From the sequence record OV876900: a stretch of DNA of 64,000 bases; one strand, 5' to 3'. A program made the position numbers and the translations under genes. Of the stretch, positions 8,270 to 64,000 are shown in pieces. Source of the stretch: Escherichia phage UGKSEcP2. The notes beneath the pieces were generated by a model that searched no databases, had not been told where the DNA came from, and saw only the letters and a list, made by a program, of their open reading frames with translations. Within the stretch, counting starts at the first letter, position 1, and each line of letters begins with the position of its first letter.

Positions 8270-8285
8270 GGGACCGAAAGGTCCC
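8270..8285. terminator. bidirectional terminator between gene 24 (+) and rnlB (-)
   Basis: GGGACC-GAAA-GGTCCC flanked by A-run and T-run. Confidence 0.75.
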
Positions 8286-9881: not shown

Positions 9882-11594
9882 TTATGGATAGGTATAGATG
9901 ATACCAGTTTCTAAAGCAGTTTTATGAATGATGTATCCATTACGTGATTCTTGAACATCAACTTCTGGATAGTCTTTCATCATCTTCTGAAGAGTGTAAC
10001 GATGCAGGTAGTATTTACTGTCTGGATCTTCAGTTTTCCAATCTTTACCTTCTTCGGTCATTTTTTGGATTTCATCCATAACCCACCAACCGCACCAGAT
10101 ATAAGCTGAAGTACGATGTGGAAGAGGATGAACATAAGGCAATTCACCTTCTGGTTCCGGAGCAACTTTATCAGTTACCTGAACTTGGCCTGTTGCTTTA
10201 ACTGTTTTACTATCATAGTCGGTTGCTGTAACGACAGCAGTAACTTCAATAGTTTGACTTCCAATAGATGAGGTGTCAACGGTGTATACGTTAGTTGACC
10301 CTTCTACAGGAGAAGAATCTTTCTTCCATGAATAAGTAATTTGTGCTGCTTCAGGTGCTCCAGTAACATTAGCCGTAAATGTAGCCGAAGCATCTTGCTG
10401 AACGTTAATAGAAGGAGGAGTCAATGTAACCTGTGGATTCATTGTCTTCTTATTAACTGTCAATGATACTTCATTAGAAGTAACTTCCTTTTCATTGTAA
10501 TTTTCAGCCGTTACTTGGGCTACACACTTAACTGTTTTAGCTCCAACTGTGGTAGGAGTATAGTTAAATGTAGTAGTAGTTTCTCCATCGACCAGAGAAC
10601 CGTCAACATACCACTGATACGTAGCAGACGCTCCTGGTGGCTGTGAAGCCAAGGCAGCAGTAAATTGAACTGGGGTTCCAATTACCCCGGCAGCAGGATT
10701 AGCAGGAGTTACGGCTAACGTAGTTGTCTGTGTTTTCTTATTAACTGTTAATGATACTTCATTAGAAGTAACTGTTTTTGCGTCATAATCTGTTGCTGTT
10801 ACTTGCGCTACGCATTTAATTCTTTTTACTCCACTTGCAGTTGGAGTATAGCTAAATGTAGCAGAAGTCGCTTCACCAATTTGAGAATCATCTACATACC
10901 ACTGATACGTAGCAGATGCCCCATCAGGTTGAGAAGCTAAGGCAGCAGTAAATTCAACGGCTGTTCCAATCACTCCAGCTGGAGGACTATCAGGAGTTAC
11001 TGCCAAGGTAGTCGTCTGCGTCTTTTTATTAACAGTCAATGATACTTCATTAGAAGTAACGCTTAGTGCATCATAATCTGCCGCAGTTACTTGAGCTACA
11101 CACTTGATTTTTTTAACTCCGCTTGTGTCAGGAGTGTAATTGAATGTAGCGTCAGTTGCTTCGTCTACAGGAGAACCGTCAACGTGCCATTGATACGTAG
11201 CGTTTGCACCTGATGGCTGTGAAGCTAAGGCAGCGGTAAATTCAATTGGAGTTCCAATCACGCCAGCATCAGGGCTACCAGGAGTTACAGCTAAAGTAGT
11301 TGTTTGTGTCTTATTTTGAACTGTGATAGTTGTCGTAGTTTCTGCTGTTTCAGGTTCAGCTTCAGATTCTGGAACTGTATTTGTTGCAACTACTTTAATA
11401 GTCTTTTGACCTGCAGGTCCTTTTAGTACATAGCTAAAAGTTGCTTCAGCTCCATCCTGTGGAACATTATCTACACTCCAAGCATAGGTAATAGTTCCAC
11501 CTTCAGTTTGACCACTGGGTGTAGCAGTAAACTGCTTGGTTTCATCAATAACTCCTGTTGGGGTTTTAGGAGTTATATCAACTGTAAAAGTCAT
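9882..11594 (-). CDS. hoc: Hoc, highly immunogenic outer capsid protein, enlarged allele with five Ig-like domains
   Basis: 570-aa ORF; three tandem ~97-aa Ig-like repeats plus conserved C-terminal capsid-binding segment YVHPLPHRTSAYIWCGWW. Confidence 0.9.
   Translation of the reverse strand: MTFTVDITPKTPTGVIDETKQFTATPSGQTEGGTITYAWSVDNVPQDGAEATFSYVLKGPAGQKTIKVVATNTVPESEAEPETAETTTTITVQNKTQTTTLAVTPGSPDAGVIGTPIEFTAALASQPSGANATYQWHVDGSPVDEATDATFNYTPDTSGVKKIKCVAQVTAADYDALSVTSNEVSLTVNKKTQTTTLAVTPDSPPAGVIGTAVEFTAALASQPDGASATYQWYVDDSQIGEATSATFSYTPTASGVKRIKCVAQVTATDYDAKTVTSNEVSLTVNKKTQTTTLAVTPANPAAGVIGTPVQFTAALASQPPGASATYQWYVDGSLVDGETTTTFNYTPTTVGAKTVKCVAQVTAENYNEKEVTSNEVSLTVNKKTMNPQVTLTPPSINVQQDASATFTANVTGAPEAAQITYSWKKDSSPVEGSTNVYTVDTSSIGSQTIEVTAVVTATDYDSKTVKATGQVQVTDKVAPEPEGELPYVHPLPHRTSAYIWCGWWVMDEIQKMTEEGKDWKTEDPDSKYYLHRYTLQKMMKDYPEVDVQESRNGYIIHKTALETGIIYTYP
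10440..11312 (-). repeat. three tandem ~291-bp coding repeats inside hoc (Ig-like domain modules)
   Basis: Recurring blocks such as TTAACTGTCAATGATACTTCATTAGAAGTAAC near 10447, 10737 and 11027; repeat peptides ~80% identical. Confidence 0.8.
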
Positions 11595-22372: not shown

Positions 22373-22375
22373 CAA

Positions 22376-22393
22376 TGGGGACCGAAAGGTCCC
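22376..22393. terminator. bidirectional terminator between gene 54 (+) and minus-strand early ORF
   Basis: GGGGACC-GAAA-GGTCCCC with flanking T-run. Confidence 0.7.
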
Positions 22394-22400
22394 CATATTT

Positions 22401-22691
22401 TTATTTACGGAATGAAATAAAAGCAGCAACTGAAGCGACTAAACTGTCTTCAATATAAACTTCAATTTTTACCGGAGCTTCTGACTCAAATTTACCTGTT
22501 ACTACACCTTGGAAAATGCTTTCAGTCTGTTCTGGCTTTGAAAAATTTTCAGAAGGAAAAATTCCGAACTTTTTATCTGTTCCAAAAATTTTGATAAATT
22601 CATCATAAACTGCTTCATTAAAAGCGTTATCAGCAGGAATAACGCCTTCAACTACAAGTTCTTGACCTAAAAAGCGTAAAGAAGATTTCAT
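22401..22691 (-). CDS. hypothetical early protein between gene 54 and alt cluster
   Basis: 96-aa ORF; own early promoter and GAGGAA RBS. Confidence 0.6.
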   Translation of the reverse strand: MKSSLRFLGQELVVEGVIPADNAFNEAVYDEFIKIFGTDKKFGIFPSENFSKPEQTESIFQGVVTGKFESEAPVKIEVYIEDSLVASVAAFISFRK

Positions 22692-22722
22692 TTTGTGTTC
22701 CTCATGTTATGTCAGTAAGATT

Positions 22723-22752
22723 ATTATAACACAGCACGAGGGACTTGTAAAC
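22723..22752 (-). promoter_or_regulatory. early promoter GTTTAC-N18-TATAAT (ORF 22401..22691)
   Basis: -35 and -10 hexamers on minus strand, conserved leader with GAGGAA RBS. Confidence 0.65.
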
Positions 22753-24809
22753 TACATCTTGAACTTTTTAGACATTCCGTTGATGTTAACCAAAGAAGCC
22801 AAGATTTGAGAAACTTCGTTTTCCTCTTCTTTTGATTCTTCTACAAGGAATTGATTAAACCCAGCCATTGGACGAACTTCACCAGTTTCCATTAGATGAT
22901 CGCCATCATATACCGATTCTTCTAATTGTTCAGAAGGAGGAACGATTGTGCCTTCGATTAGATACTTGTTATAAGCAGTTTCTTTCATCATGTACGTGCT
23001 TACTTTATTAATCTTCAGCAAAATTCCACGCGGTAGAATAACTTCAGCTTCTGATGGAAATCCTGATAAATGACCTGGAACGATAACTTTGATTCGCTCA
23101 GCCCCTTTAATTACCATACCTACGCTAGTTTCAGCATCTTCATTCGCATAAGCAGAATGACTGCCCATATGCATTAAATCTTCAGCATCAACAGAACCTT
23201 CTCCTTCACCAGAAAATACTGCGCCGGAATCATCTAGAGCCATATAGTTTTTACCATGCTCACCGAAGATATTTGGTTTAAGCGATGTTGATACGAAGTT
23301 CTTGAAATAGAACATTTTATTTTCAATATTATGGCGTAAAGTTTTAAAAGTAACTTCTTGACCACGATAAAGCGTAGTTCCCGGAGGAAGAACTGATCCT
23401 TTGGCGAATGCAGAATCCATTGTCTCGATGTGTTTAATAGCTCGTTCCATGTATTCTTCACGGGTAGAATCCGGTTTACCTAAAAGGAACGAGTTCATTT
23501 CAACATATGAATCTGCACAATAATCTTCAATTACATCAGACTCAGCCTGAGTTAATCCTTTTGGAGTTACTTCGGTGCTTGCGTATTCATATGCCTGAGC
23601 AGCAGATTCATTAATCAATTTATAAATGCTATTCATGACAAATTGAATAATAGCTACTTTTTCGTCTGGCGTGGCTTTAGAACCTTTAACTAAATCATTG
23701 ATAATTTTCTTAATAACATCAAAGCTATTAGAAATATTAATGTCAGCGAGATCGCTCAAAATTTTATCGGTTTTATAATCAAAGAATTCTTTATTCTTTA
23801 AATATTCTTGAGAACCTTGATATGTTATATCGCTCTGCAGTCTGATAGACGGATCACGTAAACGTGCATGGGCCAATGCAATATGATTTCGGAAGCTTTC
23901 TAGTTCATAATCGTTAGATTTAAAACGAGAAGCACTTCTCATACCACCGATAGCTCCTTTGCTGAAGTTTGAACCAATCTGAATAACGCCAGAGTTCATT
24001 GGTCCTTCTGCTTTATATACTGGAACTTTAGATTCAAACTCTTGATATTTCTTAGCAGCGAAGCTATCGCCCTGGAGTGAAGCATCGACAGTAGAATATT
24101 GAGCTTGTGCTGCTAATCGACGACTAATTTTAGTTTTCTGAATAACAGCTTGATCCGTGCGCTTATCATTTTCTAAAGCAATAGAAGCAGCAACAGCAAC
24201 AGCTTTAGGAACAGCATTACCTGTTTTAACATCTACATAAACATCACCAACCTTTGATTCAACTTTTGTGAATAACTCAGTTGAAATAGGAGGTACACCT
24301 GGAATGTCTTCTAAATTGGCATTTTTACGGTAAACCATAATATATGCATACTTTTTATCATAATCCCAGATTTCCTTTAAAAGAACATATCGACCTGCTC
24401 CTTTAGTACGTACTAAACGGTCAGCAATAACTTGCATCTGACGAGCAGCGCCATTTGTTTTACTTTTTAGTACGCGGAATAGGCATGCGTCAATTTTATA
24501 CTGTTTCATTGTTTGAAGAGCAGTATCAAAAACCGCATTAATGACACCAATTGGATTTCCACCCAAGTTTTTAAGTTTAACTAATGATAGTTTCTCATTA
24601 ACACCTATCATTACGATATGCATCATTTTATCGCCTGGCTTAACGTTTTTATTTGTATCACCGCCAGAGGTGTATGTACAAAATCTAAATCCAGGAAGCA
24701 CGCTTTCTTCACCGGCTTGAATAGCAAAAATTTGAGGTATTTTATGCTTAGGATTTAAGTTAACAACCGGCGCCGAAGCGCCGTCAAATAATTCTGTAAT
24801 AAGTTCCAT
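22752..24809 (-). CDS. Alt-like ADP-ribosyltransferase paralogue
   Basis: 685-aa ORF; N-terminus MELITELFD as in Alt; C-terminal R-S-E motif triad (YRGQ, STS, EAEVILPRG). Confidence 0.8.
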   Translation of the reverse strand: MELITELFDGASAPVVNLNPKHKIPQIFAIQAGEESVLPGFRFCTYTSGGDTNKNVKPGDKMMHIVMIGVNEKLSLVKLKNLGGNPIGVINAVFDTALQTMKQYKIDACLFRVLKSKTNGAARQMQVIADRLVRTKGAGRYVLLKEIWDYDKKYAYIMVYRKNANLEDIPGVPPISTELFTKVESKVGDVYVDVKTGNAVPKAVAVAASIALENDKRTDQAVIQKTKISRRLAAQAQYSTVDASLQGDSFAAKKYQEFESKVPVYKAEGPMNSGVIQIGSNFSKGAIGGMRSASRFKSNDYELESFRNHIALAHARLRDPSIRLQSDITYQGSQEYLKNKEFFDYKTDKILSDLADINISNSFDVIKKIINDLVKGSKATPDEKVAIIQFVMNSIYKLINESAAQAYEYASTEVTPKGLTQAESDVIEDYCADSYVEMNSFLLGKPDSTREEYMERAIKHIETMDSAFAKGSVLPPGTTLYRGQEVTFKTLRHNIENKMFYFKNFVSTSLKPNIFGEHGKNYMALDDSGAVFSGEGEGSVDAEDLMHMGSHSAYANEDAETSVGMVIKGAERIKVIVPGHLSGFPSEAEVILPRGILLKINKVSTYMMKETAYNKYLIEGTIVPPSEQLEESVYDGDHLMETGEVRPMAGFNQFLVEESKEEENEVSQILASLVNINGMSKKFKM

Positions 24810-24812
24810 GAT

Positions 24813-26906
24813 TTATCCTTGAACGAACTTGTAAGGCATGTTTGCAATATCTATGCAAGATGCAATAATTCCAAGAGATGATTCTACTTTTTGTTTAACA
24901 TTTGATGAAACAAATGATGCAAAGTCAACTCTGTCTTCTATTTCAATATCATCTGTCATTGCAACTACTTCACCAGTTTCCATTAGACGGTCACCGTCAT
25001 AAATTACCGATTCGGTGAGTTCTTCCGTAGTCATAACTTCAGCTTGAATGAGTTTTGTATTATTAGATGTTGTTCCGTCATTATTAGAAGCATCAGTTAT
25101 TTTATTAACTTTGACCATCAATCCGCGTGGTAGAATAACTTCAGCTTCTGTTGCTATTCCGAGACTTCCTGGATATACAACATTAACTTTATGAGCTCCA
25201 TCAATTGCCCATCCTATTTGAACTTTAACGTATTCAGGATTTTCTTTATACGCTCTTATTTCATTTGGATTAATAGTTATTCCTTCTTCATTTTTATCAA
25301 CTGTTAATTCATTACGAGCTTCTGGTTCTAAAAGACCAATACCAGCATGCGTAATTCCAAAACGTCCAAAAATGATAGGAGTTAAAGAAGTAGATACAAA
25401 ATTTCTGAAATAGAACACTTTATTTTTAACTAGTGCTTCGTATATAGGAGCAGTCATGCTTTGAGCACGATAAACTGTAATGCCTTCTGGTATACGGTCA
25501 CCATTTTCAAAGGCTGAATCTAAATTATTTATCGCAGATTCAATTTCTTTTTCACTCATTACCTCATATCGTTCTGGATTGTAGCGACCTAAAAGAAGAT
25601 TATTGATGTCAGTATATCCTGAACCACAATACTCTCTAATGCCGCGCTTTTGTGATGGAGTATATTTAGAACCATCACGAGCAATAGTAATATCAATCAT
25701 TGGACCTGCACCAATTCCAGAAAAACTATAAATCATTCTTTTGAGGAATTTAGTTTTTGCTGCATTCCAGGAATTTTTAGTTATTTCTTCCCAGACTTCA
25801 TCTGTCTGTCCTTTACGAGTTTTATTATGTTTATCAAGCCAGTTATCTTTATATTCTTCAAATAATTGATTAACAACTGTTGCGTATTTCTCTAAACATT
25901 TTATTGAAGTAGTTGGTTCATTTTTAATCGCATTAAGAATTACATCTTTAATTTTTTCAGAAACTTCATTAACCTCACTTTTTGAAAAGAATTTATAGTC
26001 ATAATGAAGTTCATCTGCAGTTCCTTCAGCAATAATTTTTGCTGCCTTAGTTTTAGAAGCTAATGAATTAATTCCAAGCTTCATTTCTTCTGCTTCGGGA
26101 ATTAAAGGAGCTGTAGCAGGTTTATTGAAATTAGCTGCGGTAGATTCATACTTCTGGAATAATTCACTTTCAAATCTAGAAGATTCCAATGATTGACTTT
26201 GTGCAATTGCTCTACGGGAAATTTTAACTTTAACGATTACAGCTTGGTCAGAACGTTTATCATTTTCTTGTGCAATAGATGCTGCAATTGCCTCATTTTT
26301 AGTTACTTGAGCTCCAGTATCTTTATTGATATAAACATCACCGACTTTCGATTCAACTTTAGTAAAGAGCTCGGTACTAATTTCTGGAACTCCTGGAATG
26401 TCTTCTAATGATACATTTTTGCGATGTATAAGAATATATGCGTACTTTTTATCGTAATCCCAGAGTTCCTTAAGAAGGACGTATCTGCCACCTGAACGAC
26501 TGCGGATAAGTCTATCAGCAATAAGTTGAATTTGTCGAGCTTGACCAGCAGTTTTAGACTTAAGAATACGGAGCATACAGGCATCAATTTTATACTGACG
26601 CATCGTTTGCATTGCAACTGTAAAAACTGAATTGATATAATTAATTGGGCTTGGACCGAGACCTTTTAATTTAGCAATTGAACCTTTAGCAGTTAATGTA
26701 AAAGGAACAATATGCATCATTTTATCGCCCATCTTTAAATCGCGATTAGTATCACCTCCAGATGTATAGGTACATAAACGAAAGCCTGGTTGTTCAATTG
26801 CGTCATCAACATGAACTGAAAAAATTTGCGGTATTTTCTTCTTTGGATTTAAGTTTGTAATCGGAAGAGTAGTATCTTCGTCAAATAATTCTGTAATGAG
26901 TTCCAT
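24813..26906 (-). CDS. alt: Alt ADP-ribosyltransferase (virion-packaged)
   Basis: 697 aa from second ATG (track ORF has MM start); MELITELFDEDTTLPITNL N-terminus; R-S-E motifs; late promoter upstream. Confidence 0.85.
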   Translation of the reverse strand: MELITELFDEDTTLPITNLNPKKKIPQIFSVHVDDAIEQPGFRLCTYTSGGDTNRDLKMGDKMMHIVPFTLTAKGSIAKLKGLGPSPINYINSVFTVAMQTMRQYKIDACMLRILKSKTAGQARQIQLIADRLIRSRSGGRYVLLKELWDYDKKYAYILIHRKNVSLEDIPGVPEISTELFTKVESKVGDVYINKDTGAQVTKNEAIAASIAQENDKRSDQAVIVKVKISRRAIAQSQSLESSRFESELFQKYESTAANFNKPATAPLIPEAEEMKLGINSLASKTKAAKIIAEGTADELHYDYKFFSKSEVNEVSEKIKDVILNAIKNEPTTSIKCLEKYATVVNQLFEEYKDNWLDKHNKTRKGQTDEVWEEITKNSWNAAKTKFLKRMIYSFSGIGAGPMIDITIARDGSKYTPSQKRGIREYCGSGYTDINNLLLGRYNPERYEVMSEKEIESAINNLDSAFENGDRIPEGITVYRAQSMTAPIYEALVKNKVFYFRNFVSTSLTPIIFGRFGITHAGIGLLEPEARNELTVDKNEEGITINPNEIRAYKENPEYVKVQIGWAIDGAHKVNVVYPGSLGIATEAEVILPRGLMVKVNKITDASNNDGTTSNNTKLIQAEVMTTEELTESVIYDGDRLMETGEVVAMTDDIEIEDRVDFASFVSSNVKQKVESSLGIIASCIDIANMPYKFVQG

Positions 26907-26929
26907 CATATCCTCTCTAGTGTTTATTC

Positions 26930-26937
26930 TATTTATA
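26930..26937 (-). promoter_or_regulatory. late promoter TATAAATA (alt)
   Basis: TATTTATA on + strand ~25 nt upstream of alt start. Confidence 0.6.
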
Positions 26938-31139: not shown

Positions 31140-31472
31140 TTATTTTACTACTTTCCAGTGCTGCATGTCAAGTTTACCAACTTTTTTCATCTTCTCAATT
31201 AAGCGTTCGGCGCGTTGGCGAGCTGTAACATAATACCATTCACCCAATTCATTTTGTTCAATTTTTCCAACGATTACTGTATTCAATTCATAAATCCAAC
31301 CAGTAAAGAAATTATGAACTTGAATTGTAAAGGTGAAATCTGTTCCCATACCTTCTGTTGTTTCTACTTCAATAATATCACCTTCAACTGCCATTAAGAA
31401 CCACATAGTTTCATCATATTTACCGTTGAAGCATTTAGTTTTAACTGCAGCGTTCAGATTAATTGTTTTCAT
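31140..31472 (-). CDS. hypothetical protein
   Basis: 110-aa ORF with own early-type promoter. Confidence 0.55.
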   Translation of the reverse strand: MKTINLNAAVKTKCFNGKYDETMWFLMAVEGDIIEVETTEGMGTDFTFTIQVHNFFTGWIYELNTVIVGKIEQNELGEWYYVTARQRAERLIEKMKKVGKLDMQHWKVVK

Positions 31473-31499
31473 TTTATTCTCCTTTGTTTGTGTAAGATA

Positions 31500-31529
31500 A
31501 TACTATCACAAAGGAACTATACTGTAAAC
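31500..31529 (-). promoter_or_regulatory. early-type promoter GTTTAC-N18-TAGTAT (ORF 31140..31472)
   Basis: Hexamers on minus strand followed by GGAG RBS. Confidence 0.5.
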
Positions 31530-31558
31530 AACTTTGTGCAATCTTTGGAAAATAAAAA

Positions 31559-31578
31559 AGGACTCCCGAAGGAGTCCT
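31559..31578 (-). terminator. terminator after the small basic ORF
   Basis: AGGACTCC-TTCG-GGAGTCCT on minus strand followed by U-run. Confidence 0.65.
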
Positions 31579-31582
31579 CAAC

Positions 31583-31759
31583 TTATGCTTTCTGCTTACC
31601 AAAACGAGAAGCATCATCTCGAAGAACCGCACGTGCTCGGCGCATGATCTTCTCAACAGTTTGATTGATACGAGAGTTCGACCCACGCTTGTAACCAGCG
31701 CGTTTAGAATCACCAACTTTCTTTTCAACTGCTTTCTTTGCTTTAGCTTGTTTTGCCAT
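31583..31759 (-). CDS. small basic protein
   Basis: 58 aa from ATG at 31759 (track ORF extended upstream to an alternative start); K/R-rich. Confidence 0.5.
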   Translation of the reverse strand: MAKQAKAKKAVEKKVGDSKRAGYKRGSNSRINQTVEKIMRRARAVLRDDASRFGKQKA

Positions 31760-37363: not shown

Positions 37364-37713
37364 TTAGAAAGGTCCTGGATGTCTTCTGCGAACTTGTTGA
37401 AGGAGTTGTTGATTTGTTTTTCAACCAATCCTGGCTTATGAGCCACCACATCCGCCTTCTTTGCGTCTTTGCGCAGTTTTTCATTTTCACGCTCAATAGC
37501 AGCAATTGCCTCACGATTTTTATTATTCATCGCATCAATATAATTATACTGAATTCGCAAATTATTTAATGCTAAAGCGTTTTCATTGGCCGTTTTTGTA
37601 ATTTCTATAACAGACGTTTCTAATCTTTCAATTTTATTTTTTAAAATTAAAGAAGTTCCGCCCAATGCAATTACAATTAATAACAAGCCTGTTGTCGTAT
37701 TACTTAATTGCAT
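37360..37713 (-). CDS. pseT.3: inner-membrane spanin (i-spanin)
   Basis: 117-aa ORF; N-terminal hydrophobic helix then charged coiled-coil-like region. Confidence 0.65.
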   Translation of the reverse strand: MQLSNTTTGLLLIVIALGGTSLILKNKIERLETSVIEITKTANENALALNNLRIQYNYIDAMNNKNREAIAAIERENEKLRKDAKKADVVAHKPGLVEKQINNSFNKFAEDIQDLSK

Positions 37714-38207
37714 AAAGTTTTAATAACCTCTATAATATCGTCTTGAGAAAGACCGTTAATTAAAATATGATGTTCAGCCGGAGATTTAGAAATTTTAAAG
37801 CATGCCTCAACATCTTCTGCCATATCTGATGCGCTACGATTTGGATTACTAATTCCAAGACGATGTTTTCCCGTTAAAGGATTAACGATGATATAGCATT
37901 TACAGTTGTTAATATGAACATTAGGTTGAGTCTGATTAATGAACACATCACAATCATATTTCGCAAGCTGATTTTCTAAAAAGACTTTCATCTCCTCAAC
38001 CGCATCAGGAAGCATATCACGGGCTTGCTCAAGACGACGATTTCGATATTCTTTAATGGTCGTTTTCCGCTTGACTTGCTTAGCTAAATCTTTCTTAAGA
38101 TCGGTGATATATCCAACTCGACGATTTCCTTTAAATACAGAAATCCCATCTGTAGTATCACCGTATGCTTCAACGACCATCTCAGTAGTAATAAGCTGCA
38201 AATCCAT
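37704..38207 (-). CDS. alc: Alc, inhibitor of host transcription on cytosine-containing DNA
   Basis: 167-aa ORF recognised as T4 Alc; early promoter upstream. Confidence 0.85.
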   Translation of the reverse strand: MDLQLITTEMVVEAYGDTTDGISVFKGNRRVGYITDLKKDLAKQVKRKTTIKEYRNRRLEQARDMLPDAVEEMKVFLENQLAKYDCDVFINQTQPNVHINNCKCYIIVNPLTGKHRLGISNPNRSASDMAEDVEACFKISKSPAEHHILINGLSQDDIIEVIKTLCN

Positions 38208-38239
38208 TATAAAGTCCTCATGTTATGTCAGTAAGATTA

Positions 38240-38268
38240 CTATAACACAGCACGAGGGACTTGTAAAC
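38240..38268 (-). promoter_or_regulatory. early promoter GTTTAC-N18-TATAGT (alc)
   Basis: Near-identical to the cassette at 22692..22752. Confidence 0.65.
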
Positions 38269-38271
38269 AGC

Positions 38272-39859
<1,588 letters not shown>

Positions 39860-46534: not shown

Positions 46535-46564
46535 ATAGTATCACACTACTACCCTTCTGTAAAC
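46535..46564 (-). promoter_or_regulatory. early promoter GTTTAC-N18-TACTAT
   Basis: Hexamers on minus strand upstream of the 22-aa ORF and ORF 46183..46425. Confidence 0.5.
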
Positions 46565-47224: not shown

Positions 47225-47267
47225 ATCATTTTCCTCTTTAATTATCAGTAGTATTGCCGATAGTTGT

Positions 47268-47297
47268 ATAGTACCACAGAAGAACAGGGGTGTAAAC
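47268..47297 (-). promoter_or_regulatory. early promoter GTTTAC-N18-TACTAT (ORF 46997..47224)
   Basis: Hexamers on minus strand; A/T-rich upstream block; part of repeated cassette. Confidence 0.6.
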
Positions 47298-47328
47298 AGT
47301 TTTGTGAAAAAATTTTTAAAATAAAAAA

Positions 47329-47347
47329 GGGGACCTCTAGGGTCCCC
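47329..47347 (-). terminator. terminator after gene 32
   Basis: GGGGACC-loop-GGTCCCC followed by U-run on minus strand. Confidence 0.65.
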
Positions 47348-63554: not shown

Positions 63555-63591
63555 TTTAATCTCCGTTTCAGTTCATTTATTTGATAGGTCT

Positions 63592-63620
63592 ATAGTATCA
63601 TGTTTAAAGCAGAAGTAAAC
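63592..63620 (-). promoter_or_regulatory. early promoter GTTTAC-N17-TACTAT (motA)
   Basis: Hexamers on minus strand; conserved leader shared with 63907..63943. Confidence 0.6.
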
Positions 63621-63887: not shown

Positions 63888-63935
63888 TTTTGTATCTCCG
63901 GGTTGTTTGTTTCAGTTCATTTATTTGATAGTTGT

Positions 63936-63965
63936 ATAGTACCACAGTATGCTTTGGTTGTAAAC
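63936..63965 (-). promoter_or_regulatory. early promoter GTTTAC-N18-TACTAT (ORF 63660..63887)
   Basis: Same cassette as 47268..47297. Confidence 0.6.
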
Positions 63966-64000
63966 CGTTTTGTGAAAAAATTTTGAAATAAAAAAGGGAG

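Follow-up and report, generated by a model that had tools for sequence, protein, structure and literature searches.

Why does a T4-like phage carry almost the same early promoter and leader in front of two different genes, and what might a likeness that runs well past the promoter motifs serve? The pair in question lies in a 64,000-nucleotide stretch of Escherichia phage UGKSEcP2 (sequence record OV876900; hereafter the window), a Tequatrovirus in which each 1-kb neighborhood matches approximately 500 records at 95–99.9%. An earlier note on this DNA, made from the sequence alone, had described a near-identical block of ~55 bp at two sites 15.5 kb apart, and a repeat search of the window confirmed it as a direct repeat of 54 nt (22699–22752 and 38215–38268) in which 53 of 54 positions (98%) are identical. 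Copy A stands before alt.-3 and copy B before alc. On balance, we favor a reading in which these are two paralogous copies of one immediate-early cassette whose hairpin would shield the translation of alc and alt.-3 from read-through RNA, the alc copy probably being the ancestral one.

An early promoter and leader shared by alc and alt.-3

Pairwise alignment of the two copies with 60 nt of flank per side showed that, on the minus strand, the shared sequence begins with the G of GTTTAC (position 1 in the cassette numbering used here) and ends with the last base of GAGGA, and that the flanks are unrelated. The sole mismatch falls in the -10 hexamer, which is TATAAT in copy A and TATAGT in copy B. 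Spacer, start region, leader and ribosome-binding site are all conserved, so the similarity is not confined to the hexamers. A search for the 54-mer with up to three mismatches returned only these two sites in the window, with none expected from 100 shuffles. In all, 11 early promoters of the T4 type were found in the window, and in their remaining 54 pairwise comparisons 24.3 ± 5.7 of 54 positions agree (maximum 39); the similarity of the two copies therefore far exceeds what the promoter consensus provides: ordinary pairs share that consensus alone (24 ± 6 of 54), whereas the alc/alt.-3 pair also shares spacer, start region and leader. Aligned cassettes of differing loci or genera are 60–80% identical.

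Both copies have the layout of a T4 early promoter (Pe), with GTTTAC(A), a 17-nt spacer, TGn and TAnnnT. A promoter scan of the minus strand scored copy A (TTTACA-17-TATAAT) at 11/12 and copy B (TTTACA-17-TATAGT) at 10/12, with TGn present in each. The Pe class of T4 (Hinton 2010, PMC2988021) has the same GTTTAC -35 element, 17-nt spacer, TGn and near-consensus -10, and likewise sits just before early genes. Promoter scan and open reading frames (ORFs) agree with the proposal that the cassette comprises an early promoter, a leader and a ribosome-binding site ahead of a 96-aa ORF, which is alt.-3, and of alc. There is no clear A/T-rich UP element immediately upstream of either -35, since the -35 abuts the preceding coding sequence; A/T runs occur only beyond about -45 at copy B, and copy A has a short AAAAA.

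Each cassette is bounded by an upstream stop codon and by a downstream Shine–Dalgarno (SD) sequence and start codon. In copy A, the G of GTTTAC (22752) is the final base of the TAG stop of an alt paralog, while in copy B the rnlA TAA stop is 3 nt upstream of the cassette. The distance from GAGGA to the ATG is 7 nt in both copies.

A predicted hairpin pairs the spacer with the SD sequence

In RNA that spans a whole cassette, positions 12–26 (CCUCGUG(C/U)UGUGUUA), which run from the spacer into the first two bases of the -10 hexamer, are predicted to pair with positions 39–53 (UGACAUAACAUGAGG), which comprise leader and the GAGG of the SD sequence. The predicted stem of 15–18 bp thus spans spacer, -10 and leader. 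For the window sequences, the minimum free energy is -17.1 kcal/mol for copy A (z = -2.75) and -22.6 kcal/mol for copy B (z = -4.24); the T4 and T2 versions reach -23 to -24.4 kcal/mol (z from -4.6 to -5.9), also with the SD sequence paired. The predicted partner of GAGG is CCUC, in the window copies as in those of T4 and T2. With U at position 19, as in most relatives, the C·A mismatch disappears and the 15-bp stem is continuous. The helix reaches into the copy-specific flank, by 4 bp in copy B (positions 7–10, AAGU/ACUU) and by 2 bp in copy A (GU/AC). Rfam gave no match at either cassette.

The -10 hexamer spans the top of the 5' arm and the loop, and the predicted transcription start, A37, lies inside the loop. 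The promoter is thus placed within the helix: given this start site, its own transcript would lack the 5' arm, so that the stem would be possible only in RNA coming from upstream. The 32-nt leader counted from the predicted start is unstructured (0 kcal/mol).

We propose that read-through RNA, which would run from rnlA into alc and from the late-transcribed alt genes into alt.-3, carries both arms, folds the stem of ~15–18 bp and buries GAGG, so that the downstream gene would be poorly translated. RNA from the cassette's own promoter would start in the loop without the 5' arm and leave the SD sequence free. Translation of alc and alt.-3 would thereby be tied to the brief period in which early promoters fire. 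A terminator scan called no terminator between rnlA and alc, nor between the alt genes and alt.-3, and a T4 late-promoter motif precedes alt, with the next terminator only after alt.-3 (Table 1); transcripts made late from alt, and those made from rnlA before replication, should therefore cross the cassettes with both arms. The stop codons are 11–16 nt ahead of the stem, which, given the usual ribosome footprint, would place a terminating ribosome too far away to open it. A stem of -17 to -24 kcal/mol over an SD sequence is expected to cut initiation strongly. The hairpin of T4 e reduces lysozyme synthesis ~100-fold (PMC3014915).

Table 1. Positions of the two cassettes, their parts and the surrounding genes and signals in the window
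Feature	Position	Strand	Basis
Cassette copy A, 54 nt, between the stop of the second alt paralog and alt.-3	22699..22752	-	alignment, repeat and mismatch searches
Copy A -35 hexamer, TTTACA	22746..22751	-	promoter scan
Copy A extended -10, TGT-TATAAT	22723..22731	-	promoter scan
Copy A predicted transcription start (A, 7 nt past the -10)	22716	-	inferred from -10 position
Copy A 5' arm, cassette positions 12–26, with anti-SD CCUC	22727..22741	-	predicted fold
Copy A 3' arm, positions 39–53, with SD GAGG(A) at 22699–22703	22700..22714	-	predicted fold
Cassette copy B, 54 nt, between rnlA and alc	38215..38268	-	alignment, repeat and mismatch searches
Copy B -35 hexamer, TTTACA	38262..38267	-	promoter scan
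Copy B extended -10, TGT-TATAGT	38239..38247	-	promoter scan
Copy B predicted transcription start (A)	38232	-	inferred
Copy B 5' arm, positions 7–26	38243..38262	-	predicted fold
Copy B 3' arm, positions 39–57, with SD GAGGA at 38215–38219	38212..38230	-	predicted fold
alt.-3, 96 aa, downstream of copy A	22401..22691	-	
alc, 167 aa, inhibitor of host transcription, downstream of copy B	37704..38207	-	
Second alt paralog, full-length, directly upstream of copy A, putative source of read-through RNA	22752..24809	-	
rnlA (gene 63, RNA ligase 1 / tail-fiber attachment), upstream of copy B	38272..39396	-	
T4 late-promoter motif TATAAATA, 21 nt upstream of the alt ATG (alt, 24813..26909)	26930..26937	-	
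Bidirectional intrinsic terminator between alt.-3 and gene 54, end of the copy A unit	22375..22396	.	terminator scan

Some details of the two gene starts and their surroundings were recorded alongside. At 38205–38214 (minus strand) the window reads TTTATAATGG, where database relatives all read TTTATGATGG, and it lacks the extra in-frame ATG that T4 has one codon upstream of the alc start. An AUG in the 3' arm (CAUGAGGA) opens a mini-ORF of 4–5 codons in each copy (22689–22705 and 38205–38221, minus strand), the stop of which overlaps the main start codon (AAAAUGA; UUAUAAUGG). This mini-ORF has no SD sequence of its own and was set aside as a functional element, being probably incidental. Upstream of copy A in the window, two alt paralogs, both full-length, lie in tandem (24813..26909 and 22752..24809, minus strand); of the second, T4 retains only alt.-1 and alt.-2 as remnants.

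The predicted hairpin recurs upstream of alc in many lineages

Regions upstream of alc were gathered from other genera in a phage collection and in IMG/VR by way of an alignment of Alc proteins. The rnlA–alc spacers of Gelderlandvirus, Karamvirus, Jiaodavirus, LQ5 and many IMG/VR lineages have the same promoter-in-hairpin layout. This design recurs across Tevenvirinae and in most lineages consists of GTTTACA, an arm, TAnnnT, a loop with CTTAC, a complementary arm ending in GGAGA or GAGGA, ~7 nt and ATG. The arm sequences themselves vary (UCUCCAUUUGGUU, UCCUCAUCAG, CCUCUCAUUUU, CCUCGUUUGUU, AUCCCAUUUUGUU and others). The 3' arm of most lineages runs up to the SD sequence and stops there, and the 5' arm opens with the complement of that sequence (CCUC or UCUCC), which favors the SD sequence as the target of the hairpin.

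RNAalifold returned no structure from a MAFFT alignment of 37 alc-upstream sequences, because loop lengths vary and the helix register shifts by 1–3 nt between lineages. Two other tests do reveal it. In an alignment-free duplex permutation test on 20 lineages (clusters at 80% identity), cognate spacer–leader duplexes average -14.9 kcal/mol versus -8.4 kcal/mol for non-cognate ones, a value reached by none of 20000 permutations (p ≤ 5e-5), and the cognate partner was the best in its row for 13 of the 20. A covariance model built from seven Gelderlandvirus and Karamvirus sequences only recovered the alc cassettes of many other lineages, both window copies (E ≈ 0.01) and the copies of T4 and T2. 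In the resulting alignment, which is fitted to the structure and whose 64 rows include antisense matches and other early promoters, 92.6% of cells hold standard pairs, versus 67.7 ± 1.1% when shuffled and 36–47% when slid, and all 13 pairs change on both sides, as compensatory changes do. Restricted to the 30 distinct sense-strand rows from the alc locus, 93.5% of cells are paired. Taken jointly, the permutation test and the covariance model argue that the alc hairpin is kept by selection.

Probable origin of the alt.-3 copy and possible later exchange

Five genomes of four other genera (Gaprivervirus, Mosigvirus, Marfavirus and two of Karamvirus) have a different cassette at alt.-3, with GTTTACA, a small stem-loop internal to the spacer (GCAC-AAGGAA-GTGC type) and a free SD sequence. 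Its flanks are orthologous to those of the window, in that the alt stop codon TAG runs into GTTTAC and the sequence that follows GAGGA, AAACAAAATGAAATC, corresponds to ACACAAAATGAAATC in Tequatrovirus. Across genera, replacement at alt.-3 is thus confined to the interior of the cassette. Since the cassette of these five genomes differs, the Tequatrovirus alt.-3 copy appears to derive from the alc cassette. The older alt.-3 cassette and the alc cassette have GTTTACAAG in common at one end and ACATGAGGA at the other; in a Tequatrovirus ancestor, exchange within these shared stretches may have overwritten the interior of the alt.-3 promoter with the alc cassette. The simplest reading is that the alc copy is ancestral and the alt.-3 copy a Tequatrovirus-specific duplicate of it, and the longer flank pairing at alc (4 bp versus 2 bp) fits this direction.

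Copies A and B were compared in 11 Tequatrovirus genomes, where they differ from each other at 0–5 of 54 positions (91–100% identical) and where positions 1–10 and 41–54 are invariant in both. Of seven stem variants, five preserve or strengthen a pair (C to U opposite G, G to A opposite U), and a pair is lost with C12→A and with the C19 of the window. The distance between the two copies within a genome (2.9) is about the same as that between genomes (3.1), and general concerted evolution was rejected on this ground: steady homogenization would not leave the two distances equal, so conversion is at most sporadic. Certain rare variants are nonetheless shared by the two copies of one genome. C19 is present in both window copies, although it occurs in only 3 of 499 database records in copy A and in 0 of 499 in copy B; two of the three phages with C19 in copy A have T19 in copy B, as do relatives of these three. 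No copy B other than those of PP01 and G28 was seen with TATAAT, and in these two phages copy A matches copy B at 54 of 54 positions. Such variants suggest occasional ectopic gene conversion between the copies after the duplication.

A separate observation concerns the alc locus of Mosigvirus-like phages (L019/L049), where the cassette has a spacer-internal stem-loop (ACACC-AAGGAA-GGTGT) and a TATCAACAACA leader, as in the alt.-3 cassettes of the other genera. It is only modestly closer to alt.-3-type cassettes (75–82% identical) than to alc-type cassettes (60–75%), and a reverse swap, of an alt.-3-type cassette to alc, is possible in Mosigvirus.

Mobility, termination and other explanations of the repeat

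The earlier note had likened the cassette to the promoter-early stem-loop (PeSL) elements of T4-type phages and had regarded it as a mobile unit that can mediate gene shuffling. PeSL cassettes have been described for RB49/phi1, PST/T4 and nt-1/KVP40 (Arbiol et al. 2010, PMC2839356; Comeau et al. 2014, PMC4122927), and analogous combinations of early promoter and stem-loop at T-even internal-protein loci are attributed to Repoila et al. 1994, as cited in PMC2839356. If the cassette were a classical PeSL, its stem-loop would terminate or attenuate upstream transcription and the unit would serve as a portable recombination linker between loci and phages. Much of the published layout is indeed present, from stop codon through sigma70-type promoter and stem-loop over the -10 to SD sequence and start codon, and the likeness drawn in the earlier note, which had not detected the stem-loop itself, holds for the promoter, for the stem-loop now predicted over the -10 and for the stop and SD boundaries. 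Both are intergenic units with a strong early promoter overlapped by a stem-loop, and in both the repeated copies amount to short patches of homology. Stem-loops of this kind are found at 6 of the 11 early promoters of the window, those of RB49 and phi1 terminated transcription in reporter assays (PMC2839356), and the alt.-3 locus points to one copying event between loci that ended within the -35 and SD motifs common to both, and to some exchange of sequence afterwards, as the rare shared variants indicate.

The predicted stem, however, has neither a G-run/C-run nor a terminator tail. It is followed by AACACAAAAUG or ACUUUAUAAUG in the two copies, with no U tract, and by A-rich sequence in other genera, and the terminator scan called no intrinsic terminator at either cassette. 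What the stem does reach and cover is the SD sequence. The geometry of the T4/PST class, with an AGNA-loop-TCNT stem-loop just upstream of the promoter (PMC4122927), is not that of the present cassettes, in which the shared sequence opens at the -35, with unrelated flanks before it.

Nor does the distribution fit a moving element. A blastn search with the cassette gave 997 places in 499 records, approximately two per genome, including T4 (~123,040–123,093 and ~136,283–136,336, one base apart) and T2. Throughout these ~499 Tequatrovirus records the loci are rnlA→alc and alt paralog→alt.-3; among the matches listed, there are two places per record except in G28 (three) and in the partial genome Maryam (one). 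A metagenome search with the 21-nt 3' arm found eight stretches, all in one or the other of these contexts. The matches listed for the ~499 records and the eight metagenome contigs thus held no new genomic context for the cassette and no rearrangement breakpoint at it. The third copy in G28 (NC_054916, 137,897–138,248) stems from a 351-bp tandem duplication that spans the 3' end of rnlA, the cassette and the first 148 nt of alc and yields a truncated alc; its junction lies inside alc and rnlA, away from the cassette. PeSLs sit in hyperplastic clusters beside variable ORFans, at the end points of insertions, deletions or replacements, whereas the alc/alt.-3 cassette occupies the same two conserved loci in ~500 genomes, outside such a cluster. 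Moreover, a crossover between the direct copies would delete 15.5 kb including gene 30 (DNA ligase) and gene 31, which, judging from established T4 genetics, should be lethal. Present-day mobility is not supported for this pair, and neither is a part in gene shuffling. We therefore consider a classical PeSL role unlikely, and the hairpin is better explained by occlusion of the SD sequence than by a recombination or terminator module. As a separate case of local duplication, the Gaprivervirus phage PSD2001 has a partial alc copy upstream of alc.

Less probable still is that the inverted repeat acts at the DNA level, either as a cruciform or as the operator of a dimeric protein of phage or host, and so co-tunes or shuts off both promoters. 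The arms do flank the -10 and the start site, identical copies would regulate alc and alt.-3 identically, and in 31 hairpin-bearing sequences sense and antisense fold equally, with G·U pairs making up 23 of 535. Yet arm sequences are free to differ from genus to genus as long as they pair, a pattern that RNA helices typically show and protein operators seldom do; a 3' arm that ends at the SD sequence and a 5' arm that opens with its complement, as in most lineages, are sensible only in RNA; and Tequatrovirus has three G·U pairs that make the sense RNA 5–9 kcal/mol more stable than the antisense. That the hairpin is incidental, the repeat being a fairly recent and undiverged duplicate of a strong promoter, seems very improbable: Tequatrovirus genomes are only 1–5% diverged overall and the A–B differences (0–5 of 54) are similar in size to those between orthologous copies, but the helix design is kept at alc, with compensatory changes, across lineages whose Alc proteins are only 45–60% identical, most variation in the Tequatrovirus 5' arm keeps pairs (C12→A and the window's C19 excepted), and positions 1–10 and 41–54 do not vary at all.

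Translational shielding from read-through RNA remains the reading that we favor, and several observations weigh against it. The window's C19 places a C·A mismatch in the stems of both copies. At alc, the spacer–leader helix is absent from the Mosigvirus-like L019/L049 and from lineages L047, L062, L063 and L064, and in L044, L061 and L051 the 3' arm ends 2–3 nt short of the SD sequence. Folding does not set the two strands apart across lineages (-19.9 kcal/mol for antisense, -19.8 kcal/mol for sense), so that a DNA-level palindrome is conceivable, and the covariance alignment has the mixed and fitted makeup described above. Three other early promoters of the window, with GTTTAC at 46564, 34946 and 31137 (minus strand), have stem-loops across the -10 (z from -3.8 to -4.8) that end well short of the SD sequence, and hairpins at this promoter position may have a more general role. 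The near-equal distances within and between genomes allow at most sporadic conversion between the copies. Finally, the literature searched yielded no 5'-end, structure-probing or translation data for the alc and alt.-3 loci, so the start site and the translational block remain predictions.

Other elements of the window

A third hairpin that covers an SD sequence is predicted at the early promoter before gp30.8 (31472–31529, minus strand; arms UUCCUUUGU and ACAAAGGAG). The promoter at 31529 drives the 110-aa ORF 31140..31472 (gp30.8), and the covariance model finds its T4 counterpart. Stem-loops over the -10 are common among T4-type early promoters. Nearby, at 31544–31627 (minus strand), a sub-threshold Rfam match to Atu_C8, a Rhizobiales small RNA (31.4 bits against a gathering score of 50, E = 0.006), is most likely due to chance.

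Further early promoters belong to a second family of shared regulatory sequence, with promoter, upstream or leader blocks that are 74–92% identical (47259–47330 and 63927–63998; 63565–63600 and 63909–63944; 31523–31561, 47291–47329 and 63959–63997). The stem GGGACCGAAAGGTCCC occurs at 22375–22396, where it forms the bidirectional terminator between gene 54 and alt.-3, and again at 8270–8285. Three tandem repeats of 288 nt (10444–11319), ~78% identical, may be Ig-like domains of a head decoration gene (hoc).

A proposed switch of a known kind, set to early genes

Among systems already described, the cassette has a T4-type early promoter and a broadly PeSL-like build, and its closest functional counterparts are the hairpins that sequester the SD sequence and enclose a promoter at T4 e (lysozyme), soc, 49 and I-TevI (PMC3014915). 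There, as predicted here, the SD sequence is buried in RNA initiated upstream, RNA from the internal promoter lacks the 5' arm and is translatable, and expression is gated in time without a protein factor. The internal promoters of those genes are late (or middle) and translation is delayed, whereas the alc and alt.-3 promoters are of the early sigma70 type and translation would be limited to the first minutes. The cassette is thus a fresh example of known phage control devices and not a new type of element. In the literature searched, in which older T4 work was only partly covered, we found no prior description of the alc hairpin, of the alc/alt.-3 duplication or of a mapped start site.

A more far-reaching version, which we put forward tentatively as somewhat less than an even prospect, is that alc, together with Tequatrovirus alt.-3 and probably gp30.8, is "promoter-locked": an old covarying hairpin, present in at least 13 Tevenvirinae lineages, would restrict translation to the genes' own immediate-early transcripts, and the whole unit would have been transplanted by conversion ending in the -35 and SD motifs, with the copies still exchanging sequence over 15.5 kb. 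A promoter-locked alc would mirror the late-gene switch of e and soc.

Alc is a shut-off factor for transcription of cytosine-containing DNA. If the proposal is correct, Alc and Alt.-3 would be made only while early promoters fire, despite continued transcription of their coding sequences from upstream, and strict early timing would have a simple, factor-free explanation. The classic translational switch of T4 would then extend to immediate-early genes. The pair also offers a clean and datable case of a whole promoter–leader unit that appears to have been copied from one locus to another, with sporadic ectopic conversion thereafter, in a highly recombinogenic phage. For annotation, late mRNA coverage of alc or alt.-3 need not imply that the protein is being synthesized.

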